Positions 6,355 to 47,676 of a stretch of DNA of 64,000 nucleotides are shown in pieces. Every line of letters starts with the position of its first letter. The first letter of the stretch is position 1. Origin of the DNA: an uncultured Planctomycetota bacterium (GTDB lineage: Bacteria; Planctomycetota; Planctomycetia; Isosphaerales; Isosphaeraceae); assembly GCA_963737655.1 (NCBI GenBank), contig CAVTTN010000002.1, forward strand, positions 3,264,001 to 3,328,000, in the 5' to 3' direction. The notes beneath the pieces were generated by a model. The model had not been told where the DNA came from. It saw only the letters and a list, made by a program, of their open reading frames with translations, and did not search any database. A program made the translations under genes and the position numbers.

Positions 6355-6932
6355 GGCCCGGTCGCTCCTGCGGGCCTCCGGACCTTCCGTTCGAGGAACA
6401 GAGCCAGAAGTCCGCCGGTGATCCCGTGGGCAAAGATCGCCAGAGCGTGCCCGATCCGTTGAAATGTGTCCAGATCTAGATCAGGGGCAGGCGGCGGTGG
6501 AGCAGGCGGCGGTGCGGGCGCCGGTGCCGCGACGTCGGGTGCGATCAACGCCTCTCGATCGATCGACTCGACGGGAGGTGAAGACTGAGGTTGCGGATGG
6601 ATACGCTCATACAACGCGTCGAGGAGGTCCGTCGTGACCAGGTAGTGGGCGTGCCCGTACTCGGGATTCAGGGTGTAGTGGGGGTGACCGTACCAGGTCT
6701 GCAGCCCGAATGCGAGAAATGCATAACCCCCTCCCACAATCACGAAGCCTACCCAGAAGGTTCGCCCATAGCCGACGAATGCAGCGACAAGACCGAACAG
6801 TATCATGGTCATGGCGAGCGTGAAGAGCACGCTGAAGACCAGGTCCGATAGCGACCGCAACGCAGCCGCCGCGACACCGCACGCAGCAACCAGGACCATG
6901 AGACCACCGACCGTCAGGATCGCTTTCCTCAC
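6351..6932 (-). CDS. Hypothetical multi-pass membrane protein with Pro/Ala-rich linker
   Basis: GTG at 6932 overlaps the upstream stop (GTGA). Four hydrophobic segments and a PAPAPPPAPPPP linker. Visibly lower GC than the flanks. Confidence 0.7.
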   Translation of the reverse strand: MRKAILTVGGLMVLVAACGVAAAALRSLSDLVFSVLFTLAMTMILFGLVAAFVGYGRTFWVGFVIVGGGYAFLAFGLQTWYGHPHYTLNPEYGHAHYLVTTDLLDALYERIHPQPQSSPPVESIDREALIAPDVAAPAPAPPPAPPPPAPDLDLDTFQRIGHALAIFAHGITGGLLALFLERKVRRPAGATGP

Positions 6933-7969
6933 GAACCACCCCCGAAACGTTCGTTCCTGACCAGCCGGACCCCTTCGACCATCGCCTTCGCCTTGGCCAC
7001 CGTCACATGCCGGGCCGTCTGCGAGAACCCGCAGTCGGGCGTGACCGTGACCCGGGTAGCGTCCACGAATTTCAGGACGGTCCGCAAGCGATCGGCCACG
7101 AGCTCGGGCGGCTCGATCCACGTATTCTTGACGTCCACCAGCCCCACGGCGACGTCCATCGTCTCGGGAAGTTCGCGGAGGAGCTCGATTTCGGCCATCT
7201 CGCGAGAGGCGAACTCCAGCGCCAGTTGATTCACCTTCGCCCGGCCGATGTGGGGGAACAGCGGGCGATAGGACCGCCAGCCCACCGCCCTCCCGCGGTA
7301 GTTGCCGAAGCACATGTGCATGCTGACGTGGGCGGAGACGCCCTCGACCGTCCGGGCGATCACGTCCAGGAACGCCTCGGGGTCGTCGGGGTGGCAGGCG
7401 AAGCTGGGTTCGTCGAGCTGGAGGAACGCGATCCCGGCGGCCTCGGCGGCGCGAAGCTCGGCGTTCACGATCGGGATCAGGGCTTCCGTGACGGCCATCC
7501 GGTCTTTGTAAACGTCGCCCCCGGCGATGCATCCGGCCAGGGTGAACGGGCCGGGGATGGGCATTTTCGACGGGGCCGACGTGATCGTTCGAAATCGGCG
7601 ATATTCGGCGACGGTGCCGAGGCCCGAGGGGGCCCGGATTGGCTCGACGCAGCGATATTTGCTGCGCTGGTCGTGAGCCGGTGGTCCGAGCTTGCGGGCC
7701 GTGGGGATCGGTTCGAGGCCGAGGATGTGGTCGTAAAAGCCCAGGTTGAAATCGACCCGTTGCATCTCGCCGTCGGTGATGATGTCCAGGCCGACGCGAA
7801 GCTGGTCGTCCACGACGATGCGGACGGCGTCCAGCAGGGCTTCCTCGCGGTCGGCCGGGCCGAATTCCGAGGGATACGAGGCGACGTCGGCGATGAATCG
7901 CTCGTACCAGCCCGGGAACGACCAACTGCCGATCACCGAGGCCGGGATCATCGGGGGTTTGGGGTTCAT
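6929..7969 (-). CDS. Cobalamin-independent methionine synthase II family (single-barrel, MetE C-terminal-like)
   Basis: GLDIITDGEMQR, PGPFTL, LQLDEP, Zn ligands HMC..GN, LEF, PDCGF; start taken at MNPKPP. Confidence 0.85.
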   Translation of the reverse strand: MNPKPPMIPASVIGSWSFPGWYERFIADVASYPSEFGPADREEALLDAVRIVVDDQLRVGLDIITDGEMQRVDFNLGFYDHILGLEPIPTARKLGPPAHDQRSKYRCVEPIRAPSGLGTVAEYRRFRTITSAPSKMPIPGPFTLAGCIAGGDVYKDRMAVTEALIPIVNAELRAAEAAGIAFLQLDEPSFACHPDDPEAFLDVIARTVEGVSAHVSMHMCFGNYRGRAVGWRSYRPLFPHIGRAKVNQLALEFASREMAEIELLRELPETMDVAVGLVDVKNTWIEPPELVADRLRTVLKFVDATRVTVTPDCGFSQTARHVTVAKAKAMVEGVRLVRNERFGGGS

Positions 7970-8039
7970 CGCGGGGGCCTCGCACGTGGGAGACGGACGC
8001 CGCCAGGATGACAGGGACGGAGCCGGATTGCAAACCGAG

Positions 8040-8060
8040 GGCACATTTCATGCGCCCTAC
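8040..8060 (-). repeat. GTAG-type REP element (family A), solo copy
   Basis: Minus strand reads GTAG-GGCGCAT-GAA-ATGTGCC; near-identical to the copies at 15854 and 16000. Confidence 0.7.
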
Positions 8061-41548: not shown

Positions 41549-41578
41549 TTGACGCGAGGCCCCTTCCCGGGGTACACT
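41549..41578 (+). promoter_or_regulatory. Sigma70 promoter upstream of the riboswitch
   Basis: TTGACG-18 nt-TACACT, about 22 nt before the aptamer. Confidence 0.65.
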
Positions 41579-41600
41579 TCCGGCATCATAATTCGGTGCG

Positions 41601-41745
41601 CATCTTATCCAGAGTGGCTGAGGGACGGGCCCGATGACGCCACAGCAACCGGTCCGCCATCATGGCGGACGCAGGTGCTAACTCCTGCCTGGGTCTTTTC
41701 GGACGGCTTTGCCGATCCGAGGAGGTCGCCGGGATAGATAAGATG
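41601..41745 (+). ncRNA. SAM-I (S-box) riboswitch
   Basis: P1 CATCTTATC / GATAAGATG. Conserved ATCCAGAG..GAGGGA.GGCCC.ATGA....CAGCAACC, P3 GTCCGCCA-TCA-TGGCGGAC, GGTGCTAA.TCC, extended P4. Confidence 0.93.
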
Positions 41746-41882
41746 GTCGAGGTCGGCCGCCTCGTCTCTTGAGGGCCGAGCCGATCCCCCCTTATCCATC
41801 CTGAACGTTCCCCGGGCCCTCTCGCAGGGTTCCTGGATCGAGACGCGCATCGGGCGGCCCTCGATCCCGGAGTCCCCAAGCG

Positions 41883-43142
41883 GTGAGCACCGACCTCGTC
41901 CTCGGCCTCAAGTGTCGCCTCTGCGGCAAGCTCTACCCCAAGGCCGCCCTGAACTTCTGCACGGACGACTTCGGCCCGTTGGAAGTGGTCTACGACTACG
42001 ACGCCGTCGGCCGGACGCTCAACCGGGCCGCCATCGCCGCCCGACCCCGCACCATGTGGCGTTACCGCGAGCTCCTGCCCGTCGATGGCGAGCCCACCGT
42101 CGGCCTCCACGTCGGCGGCACGCCGCTGGTGAAGGCCGACCGCCTCGCCCGGGCCCTGGGCGTCTCCGAGCTTTACGTCAAGAACGACGCCGTGAACTAC
42201 CCCACGCTCTCGTTCAAGGATCGCGTGGTGGCGGTGGCCCTGTCGAAGGCCGTCGAGCTCGGGTTTAGCACCGTCGGATGCGCCTCGACCGGCAACCTCG
42301 CCGGGAGCGTGGCCGCCAACGCCGCCGCCGCCGGGCTCGAAGCCTACATCCTGATCCCCGACAACCTCGAGGCCGGCAAGGTCCTCGGCGCCACGATCTA
42401 CGGCGCGAAGGTCATCGCGGTCCAGGGCAATTACGACCACGTCAACCGCCTCTGCTCGCAGATCGCCTTCCGGTTCGGCTGGGGGTTCGTGAACGTGAAC
42501 CTCCGGCCGTTCTACGCCGAGGGCTCGAAGTCGATGGGCTTCGAGATCGCCGAGGACCTGGGCTGGCGGGCCCCGGATGCCGTGGTCGCGCCGATGGCCG
42601 GCGGCAGCCTGATCGGCAAGCTGTTCAAGTCCTTCAAGGAGTTCGAGACCCTCGGCCTGATCGGCCCGGTCACGACAAAAATGTTCGGGGCCCAGGCCAC
42701 CGGCTGCAACCCGATCACCAACACGGTCAAGACCGACTCGTTCAAGGTCAAGCCGGTCCGCAACCCGAACACGATCGCCAAGAGCCTGGCCATCGGCGAC
42801 CCGGCCGACGGCCTGTTCGCCTCGCAGCTCATGAGGGAAACCGGCGGCTGGGGCGAGGACGTCTCCGACGACGAGATCGTCGACGGGATGAAGCTCCTGG
42901 CGGAGACCGAAGGGATCTTCACCGAGACCGCCGGAGGCGTGACCGTGGCCGTGGCGAAGCGGCTGATCGAGCAGGGCAAGATCGACCGCGAGGGCTCCAC
43001 GGTGATCTGCATCACGGGCAACGGCCTGAAGACGCAGGAGGCCCTGCACGGCAAGGTCGCCGCCCCCGTGGTGATCCGTCCGAACCTCGAAGAGTTCGAG
43101 GCGCTCGTCGGCCTCGAAACGGGCGTCCTGGTCGGGGCCTGA
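41883..43142 (+). CDS. thrC: Threonine-synthase-like fold-type II PLP enzyme (probably O-phosphohomoserine sulfhydrylase rather than true ThrC)
   Basis: N-terminal CRLC..C, MWRYRELLP, GGTPL, NYPTLSFKDR (PLP Lys), CASTGN, EGSKSMGFE, ITGNGLK; context of SAM riboswitch and sulfur carrier. Confidence 0.85.
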   Translation: MSTDLVLGLKCRLCGKLYPKAALNFCTDDFGPLEVVYDYDAVGRTLNRAAIAARPRTMWRYRELLPVDGEPTVGLHVGGTPLVKADRLARALGVSELYVKNDAVNYPTLSFKDRVVAVALSKAVELGFSTVGCASTGNLAGSVAANAAAAGLEAYILIPDNLEAGKVLGATIYGAKVIAVQGNYDHVNRLCSQIAFRFGWGFVNVNLRPFYAEGSKSMGFEIAEDLGWRAPDAVVAPMAGGSLIGKLFKSFKEFETLGLIGPVTTKMFGAQATGCNPITNTVKTDSFKVKPVRNPNTIAKSLAIGDPADGLFASQLMRETGGWGEDVSDDEIVDGMKLLAETEGIFTETAGGVTVAVAKRLIEQGKIDREGSTVICITGNGLKTQEALHGKVAAPVVIRPNLEEFEALVGLETGVLVGA

Positions 43143-43195
43143 ACCGGGTTTTTCCGCGCACTCTCCACCCTCTCCCGAAGTCAGGAACCGCCAAG

Positions 43196-43465
43196 ATGGC
43201 CCTGGTCCGAATCCCCACGCCCCTCCGCCCCCACGCCGACGGCCAGGACTCCATCGAGGCCGCCGGCTCCACGGTCGGAGAAGTCCTGATCGCCCTGACC
43301 ACGGCCCACCCCGCGCTCAAGGAGCGAATCCTCGAGGGCGGAGAGGTCCGCCGGTTCGTCAACGTCTTCGTGAACAACGAGGACATCCGCTACCTCGACG
43401 ACCTGGCGACCCCCGTCGCCGAAAAGGACGAGGTCAGCATCATCCCGGCGATCGCCGGAGGGTGA
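43196..43465 (+). CDS. MoaD/ThiS/CysO-family ubiquitin-like sulfur carrier
   Basis: VRIPTPLR, RRFVNVFVNNEDIR, C-terminal IIPAIAGG (free di-Gly). Confidence 0.95.
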   Translation: MALVRIPTPLRPHADGQDSIEAAGSTVGEVLIALTTAHPALKERILEGGEVRRFVNVFVNNEDIRYLDDLATPVAEKDEVSIIPAIAGG

Positions 43466-43472
43466 GGCCCGC

Positions 43473-44519
43473 ATGTCCGCCGCACCCCGACCCGCTCGCC
43501 CTCGCCGACGATTCGGCCTCCGACTTCGGGGGCTCATGTTCGTCGTTCTGTTGATCGGCCTGGGGCTCGGAGATCTCCGGCACCGGATCGTGACCCAGAG
43601 GGAGGCCGTTGCCGGCATCGAGCGAGGGGGCGGTTTCATCACTTACGACTACGCGGTTGGAAATGAGACCAGCACGAAAGAGCCTCCGGGACCCGCCTGG
43701 CTCCGCGAAATCGTCGGCGACGAGCTCTTCCAGGAGGTCGCCGAAGTGGAGTTCCCACAGATCTTTCACGGGGGGCCCAACGGACCGATCGATGATGCAA
43801 CGCTCTCTCACCTCGAAAACTTTCTTGAGCTGCGAAGCCTCTCCGTTCGTCGAGACGTCTCCGGCGACAGCGACATTTGCCGACATCTGGGTAGACTGAC
43901 GAAGCTCGAACACCTGGAACTGCTCGGCATTCCCGTTGGCGATGTGGGGTTGGCGAAGCTTTCGGGCTTGAAACTCCTCAAATATCTCGATCTAAGCGGT
44001 TCAGACCTCACCGCTGATGGGATCGGGCAGTTGCGCACGCTCACGAATCTGGAGGATCTCGACCTCAGCGACACGGCAATCAAGGACGAATCGTTGAGAA
44101 TTCTGGAGAATATGGTCCACTTGAAGCATCTGAGTTTGCGACGGAATTCCCCGGAGGGTCATTCGATCACAGATATCGGCCTCTCACGCCTGGCCCATCT
44201 CACCGGTCTAGAGGAACTGGACCTGGCCGGAACCGAGATTTCCGACGGCGGACTGGTTTACCTGCGTCGAATGAAAAAACTCGAACACATCGATTTATCA
44301 TATACGAATATAGGCGACCGCGGGATGGACGAGATCGCCAGGTTGAAGACACTGATTAACCTGAACCTATGCGAGACAGGGGTTGGGAACGACGGCATCC
44401 TGAAACTGAAGCCCCTTGTATCGCTTCGCATGCTGAGCATCAGCGGCACGACCATCAGCGGTCCCGCCGTCACAGAGTTGAAGAGGTCACTACCGTCACT
44501 CGTCGTGTCTCGCAACTGA
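43473..44519 (+). CDS. Signal-anchored leucine-rich repeat protein
   Basis: RRFGLRLRGLMFVV leader, PAWLR..GD.LF motif, about 9 repeats of L..L.L..T.I.D.GL..L; lower GC than the neighbours. Confidence 0.9.
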   Translation: MSAAPRPARPRRRFGLRLRGLMFVVLLIGLGLGDLRHRIVTQREAVAGIERGGGFITYDYAVGNETSTKEPPGPAWLREIVGDELFQEVAEVEFPQIFHGGPNGPIDDATLSHLENFLELRSLSVRRDVSGDSDICRHLGRLTKLEHLELLGIPVGDVGLAKLSGLKLLKYLDLSGSDLTADGIGQLRTLTNLEDLDLSDTAIKDESLRILENMVHLKHLSLRRNSPEGHSITDIGLSRLAHLTGLEELDLAGTEISDGGLVYLRRMKKLEHIDLSYTNIGDRGMDEIARLKTLINLNLCETGVGNDGILKLKPLVSLRMLSISGTTISGPAVTELKRSLPSLVVSRN

Positions 44520-44559
44520 TAGCAAATCGATGCCTCACTCGCAGACAGGAACCGCCTCG

Positions 44560-45612
44560 ATGGCCTTCGCCTCGAATCCCGATGACCCGCTCGACCGCTA
44601 CTCCCGCCAGGTCCGCTTCCTCGGCATGGGAGAGGACGGCCAGCGGCGCTTGATGGCCTCTCGCGTGACGATCTGCGGATGCGGGGCCCTGGGCACCGTC
44701 CTGGCCAATCATCTCGTCCGCGCGGGCGTGGGGTTCGTTCGGATCATCGACCGCGACTTCATCGAGACGCATAATCTCCAGAGGCAGATCCTGTTCGACG
44801 AGCAGGACGTGGCCGACAATCTCCCCAAGGCCGAGGCCGCCGCTCGGAAGCTCCGCAAGATCAATAGCGCCGTCACCATCGAGCCGATCGTCACCGACAT
44901 CGATCATACGAACATTGAGGCGTTCGCCTCCGACGTGGATTTGCTCCTGGACGGCACGGACAACTTCGAGACCCGCTACCTGATCAACGACGCCGCCGTG
45001 AAGCTCGGCAAGCCTTGGATTTTTGGCGGGGTGATCGGCAGCGAAGGCCAGACGATGACGATCCTGCCCGGGCAGACGCCCTGCATCCGGTGCGTCGTGG
45101 AGGACACGCCGCCCCCCGGGATGGCGCCGACGTGTGAGACGGCCGGCGTCCTCGGGCCGGCGGTGGCCGTCGTCGCGTCGTTCGAGGCCGCCGAGGCGCT
45201 GAAGATCCTCGCCGGCCGGACCGAGCAGTTGAACAAGAAGCTGATCATGTTCGACATCTGGGACTGGTCGTTCCGCGAGCTCAAGATCGCGGCGTTGAGG
45301 GACAAGGTCGATTGCCCCTGCTGCAAGCACAGGCAGTTCGAGTGGCTCGACGGCAAGCTCGGCTCGCACACGACCACCCTTTGCGGGCGGAACGCCGTTC
45401 AGGTCGCCACCCGGCGGAATCAGCCGCTGAACTTCGCCGAGATGGCCGGCCGGCTCGCCCCTCTGGGCGAGGTCCGGCACAATGCCTTCATGCTCCGGTT
45501 CGCGGCCGAGGGGCACGAGTTCACCGTCTTCCCCGACGGCCGGGCGATCATCAAGGGCACCAACGACATCGCCAAGGCCCGGACGCTCTACGCCCAGTTC
45601 GTCGGCAGTTGA
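44560..45612 (+). CDS. ThiF/MoeB/E1-family adenylyltransferase
   Basis: RYSRQ, GCGALG, DRDFIE..NLQRQ, DGTDNFETRY, PCIRC, TCETAGVLG, CPCC; C-terminal LCGRNAVQ/FPDGRAII domain. Confidence 0.93.
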   Translation: MAFASNPDDPLDRYSRQVRFLGMGEDGQRRLMASRVTICGCGALGTVLANHLVRAGVGFVRIIDRDFIETHNLQRQILFDEQDVADNLPKAEAAARKLRKINSAVTIEPIVTDIDHTNIEAFASDVDLLLDGTDNFETRYLINDAAVKLGKPWIFGGVIGSEGQTMTILPGQTPCIRCVVEDTPPPGMAPTCETAGVLGPAVAVVASFEAAEALKILAGRTEQLNKKLIMFDIWDWSFRELKIAALRDKVDCPCCKHRQFEWLDGKLGSHTTTLCGRNAVQVATRRNQPLNFAEMAGRLAPLGEVRHNAFMLRFAAEGHEFTVFPDGRAIIKGTNDIAKARTLYAQFVGS

Positions 45613-45625
45613 GCATGGCCGTCCT

Positions 45626-45735
45626 CCGATCCACCACAAAGCCACGAAGGACTCGAAGGAAGACACAAAGAAGACAAGGGCTCCCCTCTTCTTTGTGTCT
45701 TCCTTCGAGTCCTTCGTGGCTTTGTGGTGAATCGG
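45626..45735. repeat. Long perfect hairpin (43-bp arms), REP/MITE-like extragenic palindrome
   Basis: 45632-45674 is the exact reverse complement of 45687-45729 with a 12-nt loop; extends 5 bp further after one mismatch; between convergent genes. Confidence 0.92.
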
Positions 45736-45884: not shown

Positions 45885-47411
45885 TCAGGGCCAGACGTTC
45901 TTGATCCAGGAAGCGATCTGAATGTAGATCGGGATGCCGATGGTGACGTTGAACGAGAACGTGAGTCCGAGCGAGGCCGCCAGGGGCAGAGTCGGGCTGG
46001 CCTCGGGGATCGCCAGCCTCTGGACGGCCGGGACCGCGATGTAGCTTGCCGCGGCACAGAGGACTGCGAACAGGACGTAGGTGCCCGGCTGGAAGTCCGA
46101 GTGGGTGAACTTCGAGTAGGCGTGGGCCACGAAGATGCCGATCGTCGCGAACAGGATCGGCCCGGCGATCCCGAAGACGATGTAGCCCCAGCCGGCCGTC
46201 TTCAGGTCCTTCAGCTTCCTCGACGCCGTCATCCCCATCTCCAGGAGGAAGAGGCAGAGGATGCCCTGGAACAGGTTGAGGAAGAAGTTGTCGTCCTCCC
46301 TCGTCACGGCGGCCCCTTGCTTGCCCGAGATGAACCCGATCAGGATGCCGCCGAAGAGGAGGTAGAGGCCCGGGTTGAGGAAGACCTCGTGGAGGAGCTG
46401 CGGGCTGAATCCACCCTTCTTCTTCGGAGTCCCATTGCCGTGGCCGTTGCCCTCGCCGACGACCTCCATCGACATCTTCTTCTCGTCCTGGACGCCGTGG
46501 GCGTCGCCCTCGCCGTGACCTCCGCCGTGGCCGTGCTCGCCAAGGGAGATCGGAGGCTTGGCGTTCGGGTCATAGCCCGGCTCGTCGGGCATGGTGCCGG
46601 CCGGGTCCATCCCCTGATTCCTCAGCCGGGACACCAGATAGAGCGCCACGAGGCAGCCGGGGATTTCCATCACGGCCAACATCACGGGCATGTACGCATC
46701 GTACTGCATGTTGATCGACGCCAGGACGCCGAGGCAGGTCACGAACGTGCCCGCCGAGTCCGAGCCGTAGTAGCCCGCGACCGTCGCCTTGTCGATCCGC
46801 CTCATCCGCGTCATCAAGGAGAGCCCGATATAAGCCAGCACTCCGATGACGAAGTTCGTCATGAACCCCGTGAGCATGAATCCCAACGCCTTGCCGAGGA
46901 TGCTCGAATCCAGGTTCGCGAGCTCCTCGCCCCCGTGCCAGCCGATCGCCACCAGCAGGTAGATGACCAGGGCCTGATAGACGACATACGGGAACTCGAA
47001 CTTCACGCGTAAGATCGGGACGAGGAAGCCCATGTAGAAAAAGAGGAGCAACGGCTTGAACAGGTTGTGCGTGAAATTGTGCCAGAACTCCAGGAGGGGC
47101 GGCCGATACGGCGGGAGCGGGATCGTGTGAACCTCTCCGGCGATCGCCGCGTTGGTGATGCTGACCCGCTGATCCACCTGAAGCTCTTCGAATTTCAGGG
47201 GTTCGGACTCGCCCTTGGCGAACGTCGTGTTCTCGGGGATGGCGATCCGGATCTCCTTGTGGAGCGCGCCTCCCTCGGGTTTCAGCGTGATGATCCTCTT
47301 CTCGCGATCGATTTTCTTGATGGTCCCCTTGTATTCCTGGGCGGAGGCCGTGGCGGCGGCGAGGCCGAGGAGCAGCGCGGTCATCGCGCAGGCGGTCGAG
47401 CGCAGACGCAT
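45885..47411 (-). CDS. sbtA: SbtA-family sodium-dependent bicarbonate permease with N-terminal secreted beta-domain
   Basis: PLLLFF.MG, YLLVAIGWHGG, AGYYGSDSAGTF, MEIPG, LFLLEMGM, AASYIAVPA, LAASLGLTFSFNVTIGIP. Confidence 0.85.
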   Translation of the reverse strand: MRLRSTACAMTALLLGLAAATASAQEYKGTIKKIDREKRIITLKPEGGALHKEIRIAIPENTTFAKGESEPLKFEELQVDQRVSITNAAIAGEVHTIPLPPYRPPLLEFWHNFTHNLFKPLLLFFYMGFLVPILRVKFEFPYVVYQALVIYLLVAIGWHGGEELANLDSSILGKALGFMLTGFMTNFVIGVLAYIGLSLMTRMRRIDKATVAGYYGSDSAGTFVTCLGVLASINMQYDAYMPVMLAVMEIPGCLVALYLVSRLRNQGMDPAGTMPDEPGYDPNAKPPISLGEHGHGGGHGEGDAHGVQDEKKMSMEVVGEGNGHGNGTPKKKGGFSPQLLHEVFLNPGLYLLFGGILIGFISGKQGAAVTREDDNFFLNLFQGILCLFLLEMGMTASRKLKDLKTAGWGYIVFGIAGPILFATIGIFVAHAYSKFTHSDFQPGTYVLFAVLCAAASYIAVPAVQRLAIPEASPTLPLAASLGLTFSFNVTIGIPIYIQIASWIKNVWP

Positions 47412-47676
47412 CGAAACATCTCCTTCGATCCGAGGGGGGGGAAGCGACTCGTCGCCGGTCCGCTCCCGGGACGGAAGCGTATGAGGGACCAGGGCGACTC
47501 GGACGGGCCTCGGTCGATCCACGAAGGGCGAGGTCCAGGACCACGGCCAGGTCGTCAAGGGATCGAGGGCAAGACCAACGGCGAGCTCTGTCTCGCGGCC
47601 TCGCATCGCCGGAGGTGCCCCGACGCGCGAGAAGTGGACCGAGCCCGCCGGGAATGGTGGCGGGGCCGCGTCGCCA

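Follow-up and report, generated by a model that had tools for sequence, protein, structure and literature searches.

What does a threonine synthase-like enzyme do behind an S-adenosylmethionine (SAM) riboswitch, beside a ubiquitin-like sulfur carrier and an E1 adenylyltransferase? The question is raised by an operon in a stretch of 64,000 nucleotides (nt) from an uncultured Isosphaeraceae bacterium of the Planctomycetota (GCA_963737655.1, contig CAVTTN010000002.1, positions 3,264,001 to 3,328,000), the whole of which is called the window here. All on the + strand, a SAM-I aptamer is followed by a ThrC-like pyridoxal phosphate (PLP) enzyme, the carrier, a leucine-rich-repeat (LRR) gene and the E1. 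Judged from sequence, it is highly probable that the operon is the orthologue of the Streptomyces MetM/MetO route and would make homocysteine from O-phosphohomoserine.

41549-41578, + strand: sigma-70-type promoter-like site, TTGACG-18 nt-TACACT (9 of 12 consensus positions, consensus match only)
41602-41744, + strand: SAM-I riboswitch aptamer RF00162 (Rfam, 79.0 bits, E 6.2e-17)
41883-43142, + strand: ThrC-like PLP enzyme of fold-type II, likely MetM, 419 aa (family models, tree, motifs)
43196-43465, + strand: ThiS/MoaD-family sulfur carrier, likely MetO, 89 aa, free Gly-Gly end (family match)
43473-44519, + strand: LRR protein, 348 aa, N-terminal hydrophobic stretch, likely a passenger (codon composition, paralogues, rarity)
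44560-45612, + strand: ThiF/MoeB-type E1 adenylyltransferase without rhodanese, for which the open reading frame (ORF) finder gave a start at 44530 (family models)

The thiocarboxylate route of S. albulus from O-phosphohomoserine to homocysteine uses the carrier MetO, Mec for MetO maturation, the loader MoeZ and the synthase MetM (GapMind 2026, 10.1101/2024.10.14.618325; originally from Hasebe et al. 2024, Appl Environ Microbiol 90:e01247-24), and a SAM riboswitch lies upstream of metM (PMC12172450). Annotations frequently mistake MetM for threonine synthase, and O-phosphohomoserine is formed by the HomK family (10.1101/2024.10.14.618325). An earlier reading of the locus, made from the letters and translations and called the sequence-only reading below, had proposed that the PLP enzyme makes homocysteine from the carrier thiocarboxylate and had pointed to a similar route in Streptomyces. 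This matches the published S. albulus MetM/MetO/MoeZ/Mec pathway, and the proposal appears to be supported by this match, by a separate ThrC in the genome and by the fact that MetA, MetY and a full-length MetX were not found there. The parts it named are all present: the sigma-70 promoter as a consensus match, the SAM-I aptamer (79.0 bits in an RF00162 scan, gathering cut-off 44.4), the fold-type II PLP enzyme, the MoaD/CysO-like carrier with a free GG (a ThiS-family protein ending IPAIAGG-stop) and the MoeB/ThiF adenylyltransferase, a ThiF-family E1 ending at 45612. They are co-directional as described; the LRR gene (348 aa) that separates carrier from E1 had been overlooked.

Three samples are used in what follows: the best 80 of 359 related loci, 50 genomes of the family, and 150 genomes of the phylum, in which kin are not independent. 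The closest named relatives of the enzyme belong to Isosphaeraceae and Gemmataceae.

The obvious alternative is that the enzyme makes threonine. It scores 295 bits against the ThrC model TIGR00260 (cut-off 167), which does not separate MetM from ThrC. Its closest solved relatives by sequence are threonine synthases, no solved MetM structure being among its sequence matches, and databases annotate its relatives as threonine synthase. With ThrC (TIGR00260) it shares the fold, the PLP lysine motif SFKDR and the score over the cut-off. It differs by standing in a separate clade, under SAM control and linked to a carrier, and in the substrate-site motifs, which read NLRPFYAEGSK and MAGGSL in the enzyme but SVNPFRIEGQK and VGNAGN in ThrC. 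The pattern N[LIM]R[PA][FY]Y.EG.K is found in 42/42 aligned orthologues and the ThrC-type pattern NP[YF]R.EG in 0/42. In a tree of 19 rows, drawn from a larger set of 48, the enzyme falls into a 10-row clade (support 100/100) together with a Nonomuraea protein that is 52% identical to it and has a SAM-I aptamer on one side and a carrier ending in GG on the other. A second ThrC-type protein of the genome, which adjoins dapB and also passes the thrC cut-off (223 bits), groups in this tree with the Brevibacillus ThrC of a hom-thrC-thrB operon; a constraint placing the enzyme with these two was rejected (p-AU 2.4e-7). By these comparisons the enzyme is not the genome's ThrC: it falls outside the ThrC clade, and the concern raised earlier, that it might be the only ThrC in the genome, is removed by the second protein. 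Yet another ThrC-like protein, the third, belongs to PRK08197 and forms a long-branch clade of its own (L002:4591-5859; G000:C2:3855590-3856858, - strand).

The enzyme could still be a second threonine synthase or deaminase that steers O-phosphohomoserine under SAM control, with carrier and E1 as mere neighbours serving molybdopterin or thiamine synthesis. The TIGR00260 score and the solved relatives are compatible with this, as are the operon E1 being the only canonical E1 found in the genome and a Microcystis homologue (51.6% to MetM) that has threonine synthase and deaminase activity, gave threonine and alpha-ketobutyrate in vitro and was not fully MetM-like in cells (PMC12172450). We nevertheless regard this as improbable, given the rejected grouping with ThrC, the separate ThrC in 48/50 family genomes, and ThiS and MoaD genes that lie apart in the genome with thiG-type and moaA-type neighbours. 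Repression by SAM would also fit methionine supply, and in the single genome examined from which the enzyme is gone, the carrier no longer ends in GG.

The other genes around homocysteine agree with a MetM-type function in several respects. HomK is present (508 bits, cut-off 446), and ThrB of both types was searched for in the genome and not found. The search proposed with the sequence-only reading, for a second thrC, for metA, metX and metY and for JAMM proteases, returned the second ThrC and a JAMM gene; it turned up neither MetA nor MetY nor a full-length MetX in the genome, which is 87.7% complete. A MetX-like match was set aside as a partial match to another alpha/beta-hydrolase family. 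In the family sample the enzyme occurs in 48/50 genomes, MetY in 8/50, MetA in 1/50 and full-length MetX in 7/50, with 3 more partial. An entire planctomycete family would likely rely chiefly on this pathway for homocysteine, most of its genomes having no MetY, MetX or MetA. The family genome G182, without the enzyme, has MetX and MetY; its E1 and desulfurase are kept next to a carrier whose last residues are ARG and no longer GG, which is one natural swap of homocysteine route. Across the phylum sample, the enzyme (at least 56% identity) was found in 20/150 genomes and MetY in 28/150, with an overlap of 0 and neither in 102/150.

A different product can be considered, since carrier thiocarboxylate plus a fold-type II PLP enzyme is also the chemistry by which CysM and CysO make cysteine. 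Cysteine formed from O-phosphoserine, or another sulfur metabolite, would moreover suit the JAMM peptidase gene that follows cysK elsewhere in the genome. Yet the enzyme reaches 42-44 bits with cysteine synthase models (cut-offs 344-413) and 63 with cysteate synthase (cut-off 325), far below those marks and against 295 with ThrC; the genome has a CysK over its cut-off, and no other homoserine-activating homocysteine route was found in it. Such a product is very unlikely.

The carrier itself argues for homocysteine synthesis by thiocarboxylate. In the 80 related loci the enzyme is linked to a carrier in 75, to an E1 in 71 and to a SAM pattern in 76, the misses being mostly contig ends, and 71 of the 75 carriers end in free GG. 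A complex prediction for enzyme, carrier and PLP scored 0.52 against 0.00 for the best control, which is weak support: the mark was reached by 116/157 solved and 2/215 mismatched pairs, and at 0.60 or below by only 18/157 solved pairs plus both mismatches. The runs agreed in at least 64% of contacts, with partner pLDDT of at least 84. A solved CysM-CysO complex reportedly exists, and the score may stem from likeness to it. These data bear on the notion that free sulfide or cysteine is the main sulfur donor for making homocysteine from O-phosphohomoserine, and the carrier relay an accessory. The 7 phylum orthologues without a carrier within 1.5 kb would suit it, as would a desulfurase gene that is displaced and frameshifted in the source assembly (see below); the adjoining carrier in 75/80 closer loci, the free GG in 71/75 and, weakly, the predicted complex speak for direct use of the carrier. 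We give the notion very little credence. The orthologues at L104-L110 are 56-61% identical and have no carrier and no SAM aptamer closer than 1.5 kb.

The statement that neither a JAMM peptidase nor a rhodanese is encoded at the locus holds for the E1, and a JAMM gene was found elsewhere in the genome, beside cysK. Mec, which is needed to mature MetO in S. albulus, would not be required for trimming a carrier that already ends in GG; a JAMM peptidase may still act in product release. The JAMM/Mec-like peptidase gene following cysK (L005:4598-6537; G000:C2:3710597-3712536, - strand) is a candidate for carrier recycling. In L099, L100, L101 and L102 a NIL-type domain, confirmed by Pfam for L099, is fused to the carrier past its Gly-Gly, so that freeing the GG would take a peptidase. 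The genome encodes a fourth MoaD-like protein with a GG end, missed by the ThiS profile search, at G000:C2:6461131-6461420 (- strand).

Control by SAM is suggested by the leader. The promoter-like site is one of 2 found (0.4 expected in shuffles), and the aptamer begins 24 nt downstream of it. The aptamer, matched over the whole model, is the sole Rfam element within the window and the sole SAM-I aptamer found in the genome (150/770 candidates scored); an Rfam match was obtained in 16/16 related loci tested. Past the aptamer lies a possible switching element:

41791-41796, + strand: second CTTATC, predicted competitor for the 3' strand of helix P1 (leader comparison, consensus helix)

In 42/64 related leaders a second CTTATC stands 29-60 nt past P1 (1.3 expected) and is followed by a C-rich, G-poor tract. 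In the consensus fold of 7 leaders it pairs with the P1 3' strand, with six core pairs that are invariant and so give no covariation support. From this anatomy we infer that SAM would stabilise P1 against the competing CTTATC and lower expression. An intrinsic terminator was looked for downstream of the window's aptamer and not found, and a U tract occurs in 6/64 related leaders. Translational switching was dropped as unsupported by folding. Rho-dependent termination would be our guess for the output.

The E1 differs from the usual loader. It had been described as a ThiF/MoeB type without rhodanese, which stands, family-model scans giving no rhodanese match; its C-terminal domain of ~90 residues had been overlooked:

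45331-45609, + strand: E1 C-terminal domain of predicted TBP-like fold with a conserved Cys in LCGRNAVQ, codon 45382-45384 (conservation, predicted structure)

These last ~90 residues are conserved as strongly as the catalytic part, and the Cys of TTLCGRNAVQ is invariant in 62/62 close rows and kept in 135/139 aligned distant homologues. The predicted fold (pLDDT 86) resembles TBP (Z 9.5, rmsd 3.8, 82 aligned; next unrelated row 6.3); the domain had no Pfam match and no Foldseek match at E<=0.001, and all Atlas leads were below 0.9. We infer that this cysteine might take a persulfide from a desulfurase, replacing the usual rhodanese. A TBP-like domain with a cysteine was reportedly noted on E1s by Burroughs et al. 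and proposed to act in sulfur transfer, which, if true, would lower the novelty of a TBP-cysteine relay. The start of the E1 is likely the ATG at 44560, because the surrounding 33 nt (44533-44565) repeat the start region of the carrier (43169-43201) at 82% identity, with the common motif CAGGAACCGCC.

No MoeZ-type loader (E1 plus rhodanese) was found in the genome, in which the operon E1 is the sole canonical one found. The other E1-family match sits with a nearby JAMM gene and a small ubiquitin-like ORF (G000:C2:6876433-6884145) and looks like a bacterial ubiquitin-like conjugation cluster. Since ThiS and MoaD are encoded in the genome too, the operon E1 is likely the loader of several carriers, by analogy with mycobacterial MoeZR, a single E1 with more than one carrier (PMC3227635). 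Among the matches listed, a second canonical E1 occurs in 24/50 family genomes; in the one genome scanned for this it is MoeZ-like.

The sulfur source had been expected elsewhere, and a TIGR01977 cysteine desulfurase does lie 2.2 Mb from the operon (C2:1080069-1081224), although it follows the E1 in 50/80 related loci. It is present in 49/50 family genomes and is likely, from this linkage, the sulfur source. The gene 3' of the displaced copy is the same as that 3' of the desulfurase in L009 and L010. A repeat stands at the break:

45626-45735, no strand: dispersed palindromic repeat of 110 nt, immediately 3' of the E1 stop (30 genome copies)

This palindrome, which resembles a miniature inverted-repeat transposable element (MITE) or a repetitive extragenic palindromic (REP) element, occurs at 30 places in the genome (C2) and is nearly absent from the 80 related loci. 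Since copies flank both the E1 end and, ~140 nt upstream, the displaced desulfurase gene, the operon was likely split by recombination at these repeats.

The pathway would then run as follows. HomK, whose gene lies elsewhere and whose activity is known for the family, would supply O-phosphohomoserine, and the E1, as known for its family, would adenylate the C-terminal glycine of the carrier. Linkage and conservation suggest that cysteine sulfur reaches the adenylate via the TIGR01977 desulfurase, possibly through the TBP-domain Cys. On the model of the Streptomyces pathway, the PLP enzyme would expel phosphate and join the thiocarboxylate to the gamma carbon; homocysteine would then be set free and the carrier reused. 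E1 and desulfurase would likely serve ThiS and MoaD as well. The final step to methionine could plausibly fall to a core-type (C-terminal-only) methionine synthase-like gene (window 6929-8044, - strand; below NCBIfam cut-offs). More tentatively, and as something we hold possible rather than probable, Isosphaeraceae and Gemmataceae might share a rhodanese-free relay in which the TIGR01977 desulfurase persulfurates the TBP-fold Cys of the E1, which in turn would load MetO and, in roughly one half of the family, ThiS and MoaD as well.

Besides the TIGR00260 score and the Microcystis activities, several observations weigh against assigning the operon to the MetM/MetO route. Identity to the characterised enzyme rests on a stand-in, the Nonomuraea protein having taken the place of S. 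albulus MetM in the orthology comparison. The source genome (7.63 Mb, 3 contigs) is incomplete, so that absences are soft; it contains one further Cys/Met-metabolism PLP enzyme without family assignment, and MetH and full-length MetE were searched for there and not found. Exclusivity is not strict, since 7 of the 8 MetY-bearing family genomes also have the enzyme, and within 1.5 kb of the 20 phylum orthologues a carrier was seen for 12, a SAM aptamer for 12 and neither for 7. In the window's leader, ribosome-site access was unchanged by P1 at 0.19 in all states. The desulfurase gene carries three frame changes in the source assembly; these are likely, if unproven, assembly errors, frame changes being found at 3/15 orthologue-like places, the desulfurase included. 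The lack of a rhodanese on the E1 touches the loader, not the MetM/MetO core.

The LRR gene has a GC content at third codon positions of 0.69 (0.91-0.95 in neighbour genes) and many paralogous matches, and stands between carrier and E1 in 1/80 related loci (L019); on these grounds it was ruled out as a pathway part and is likely a passenger insertion. Elsewhere, mostly in Gemmataceae, carrier and E1 are separated by the gene of a conserved ~116-aa protein that neither Pfam nor NCBIfam matches (L053:5677-6024 and 16 further loci). Convergent on the operon is an SbtA-type sodium-dependent bicarbonate transporter gene (window 45885-47606, - strand).

If the assignment is right, the annotation of proteins called threonine synthase in databases is corrected. 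The core MetM/MetO pathway is already known; new against the published scheme would be the rhodanese-free E1 with its TBP domain, the linked desulfurase and a carrier needing no trimming. The earlier impression that the route is not characterised in Planctomycetota agrees with our finding no such account in the literature searched, subscription papers and supplements lying outside its scope. The rhodanese-free relay, if true, would give a first function both to the MoeB-TBP domain and to the TIGR01977 desulfurase family, and would place a thiamine and molybdopterin loader behind a SAM riboswitch acting without an intrinsic terminator. The role of the TBP-like domain on bacterial MoeB becomes testable.

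Like the S. albulus route as described in the cited sources, the planctomycete operon has a ThrC-homologous enzyme beside a ubiquitin-like carrier, a SAM riboswitch upstream and an E1-type loader, and its genome has a source of O-phosphohomoserine. Here, however, the E1 lies in the same gene run and has a TBP-like domain instead of a rhodanese, the carrier ends in free GG so that no Mec maturation is needed, a TIGR01977 desulfurase is linked in planctomycete relatives, and O-phosphohomoserine would come from HomK, no ThrB having been found. The CysM/CysO/MoeZ/Mec cysteine route of Mycobacterium likewise passes a carrier thiocarboxylate to a fold-type II PLP enzyme. There, too, one E1 serves several carriers (PMC3227635), whereas the enzyme here is ThrC-like, its substrate would be O-phosphohomoserine and its E1 is without rhodanese. 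MoeB homologues with a C-terminal TBP domain were reported without a function and with the statement that no experimental information exists (PMC3597702). They share with our E1 the order of an E1 domain followed by one TBP-like domain; what sets the present case apart is that this architecture is tied to a homocysteine operon and a desulfurase, with the Cys conserved in 135/139 homologues.

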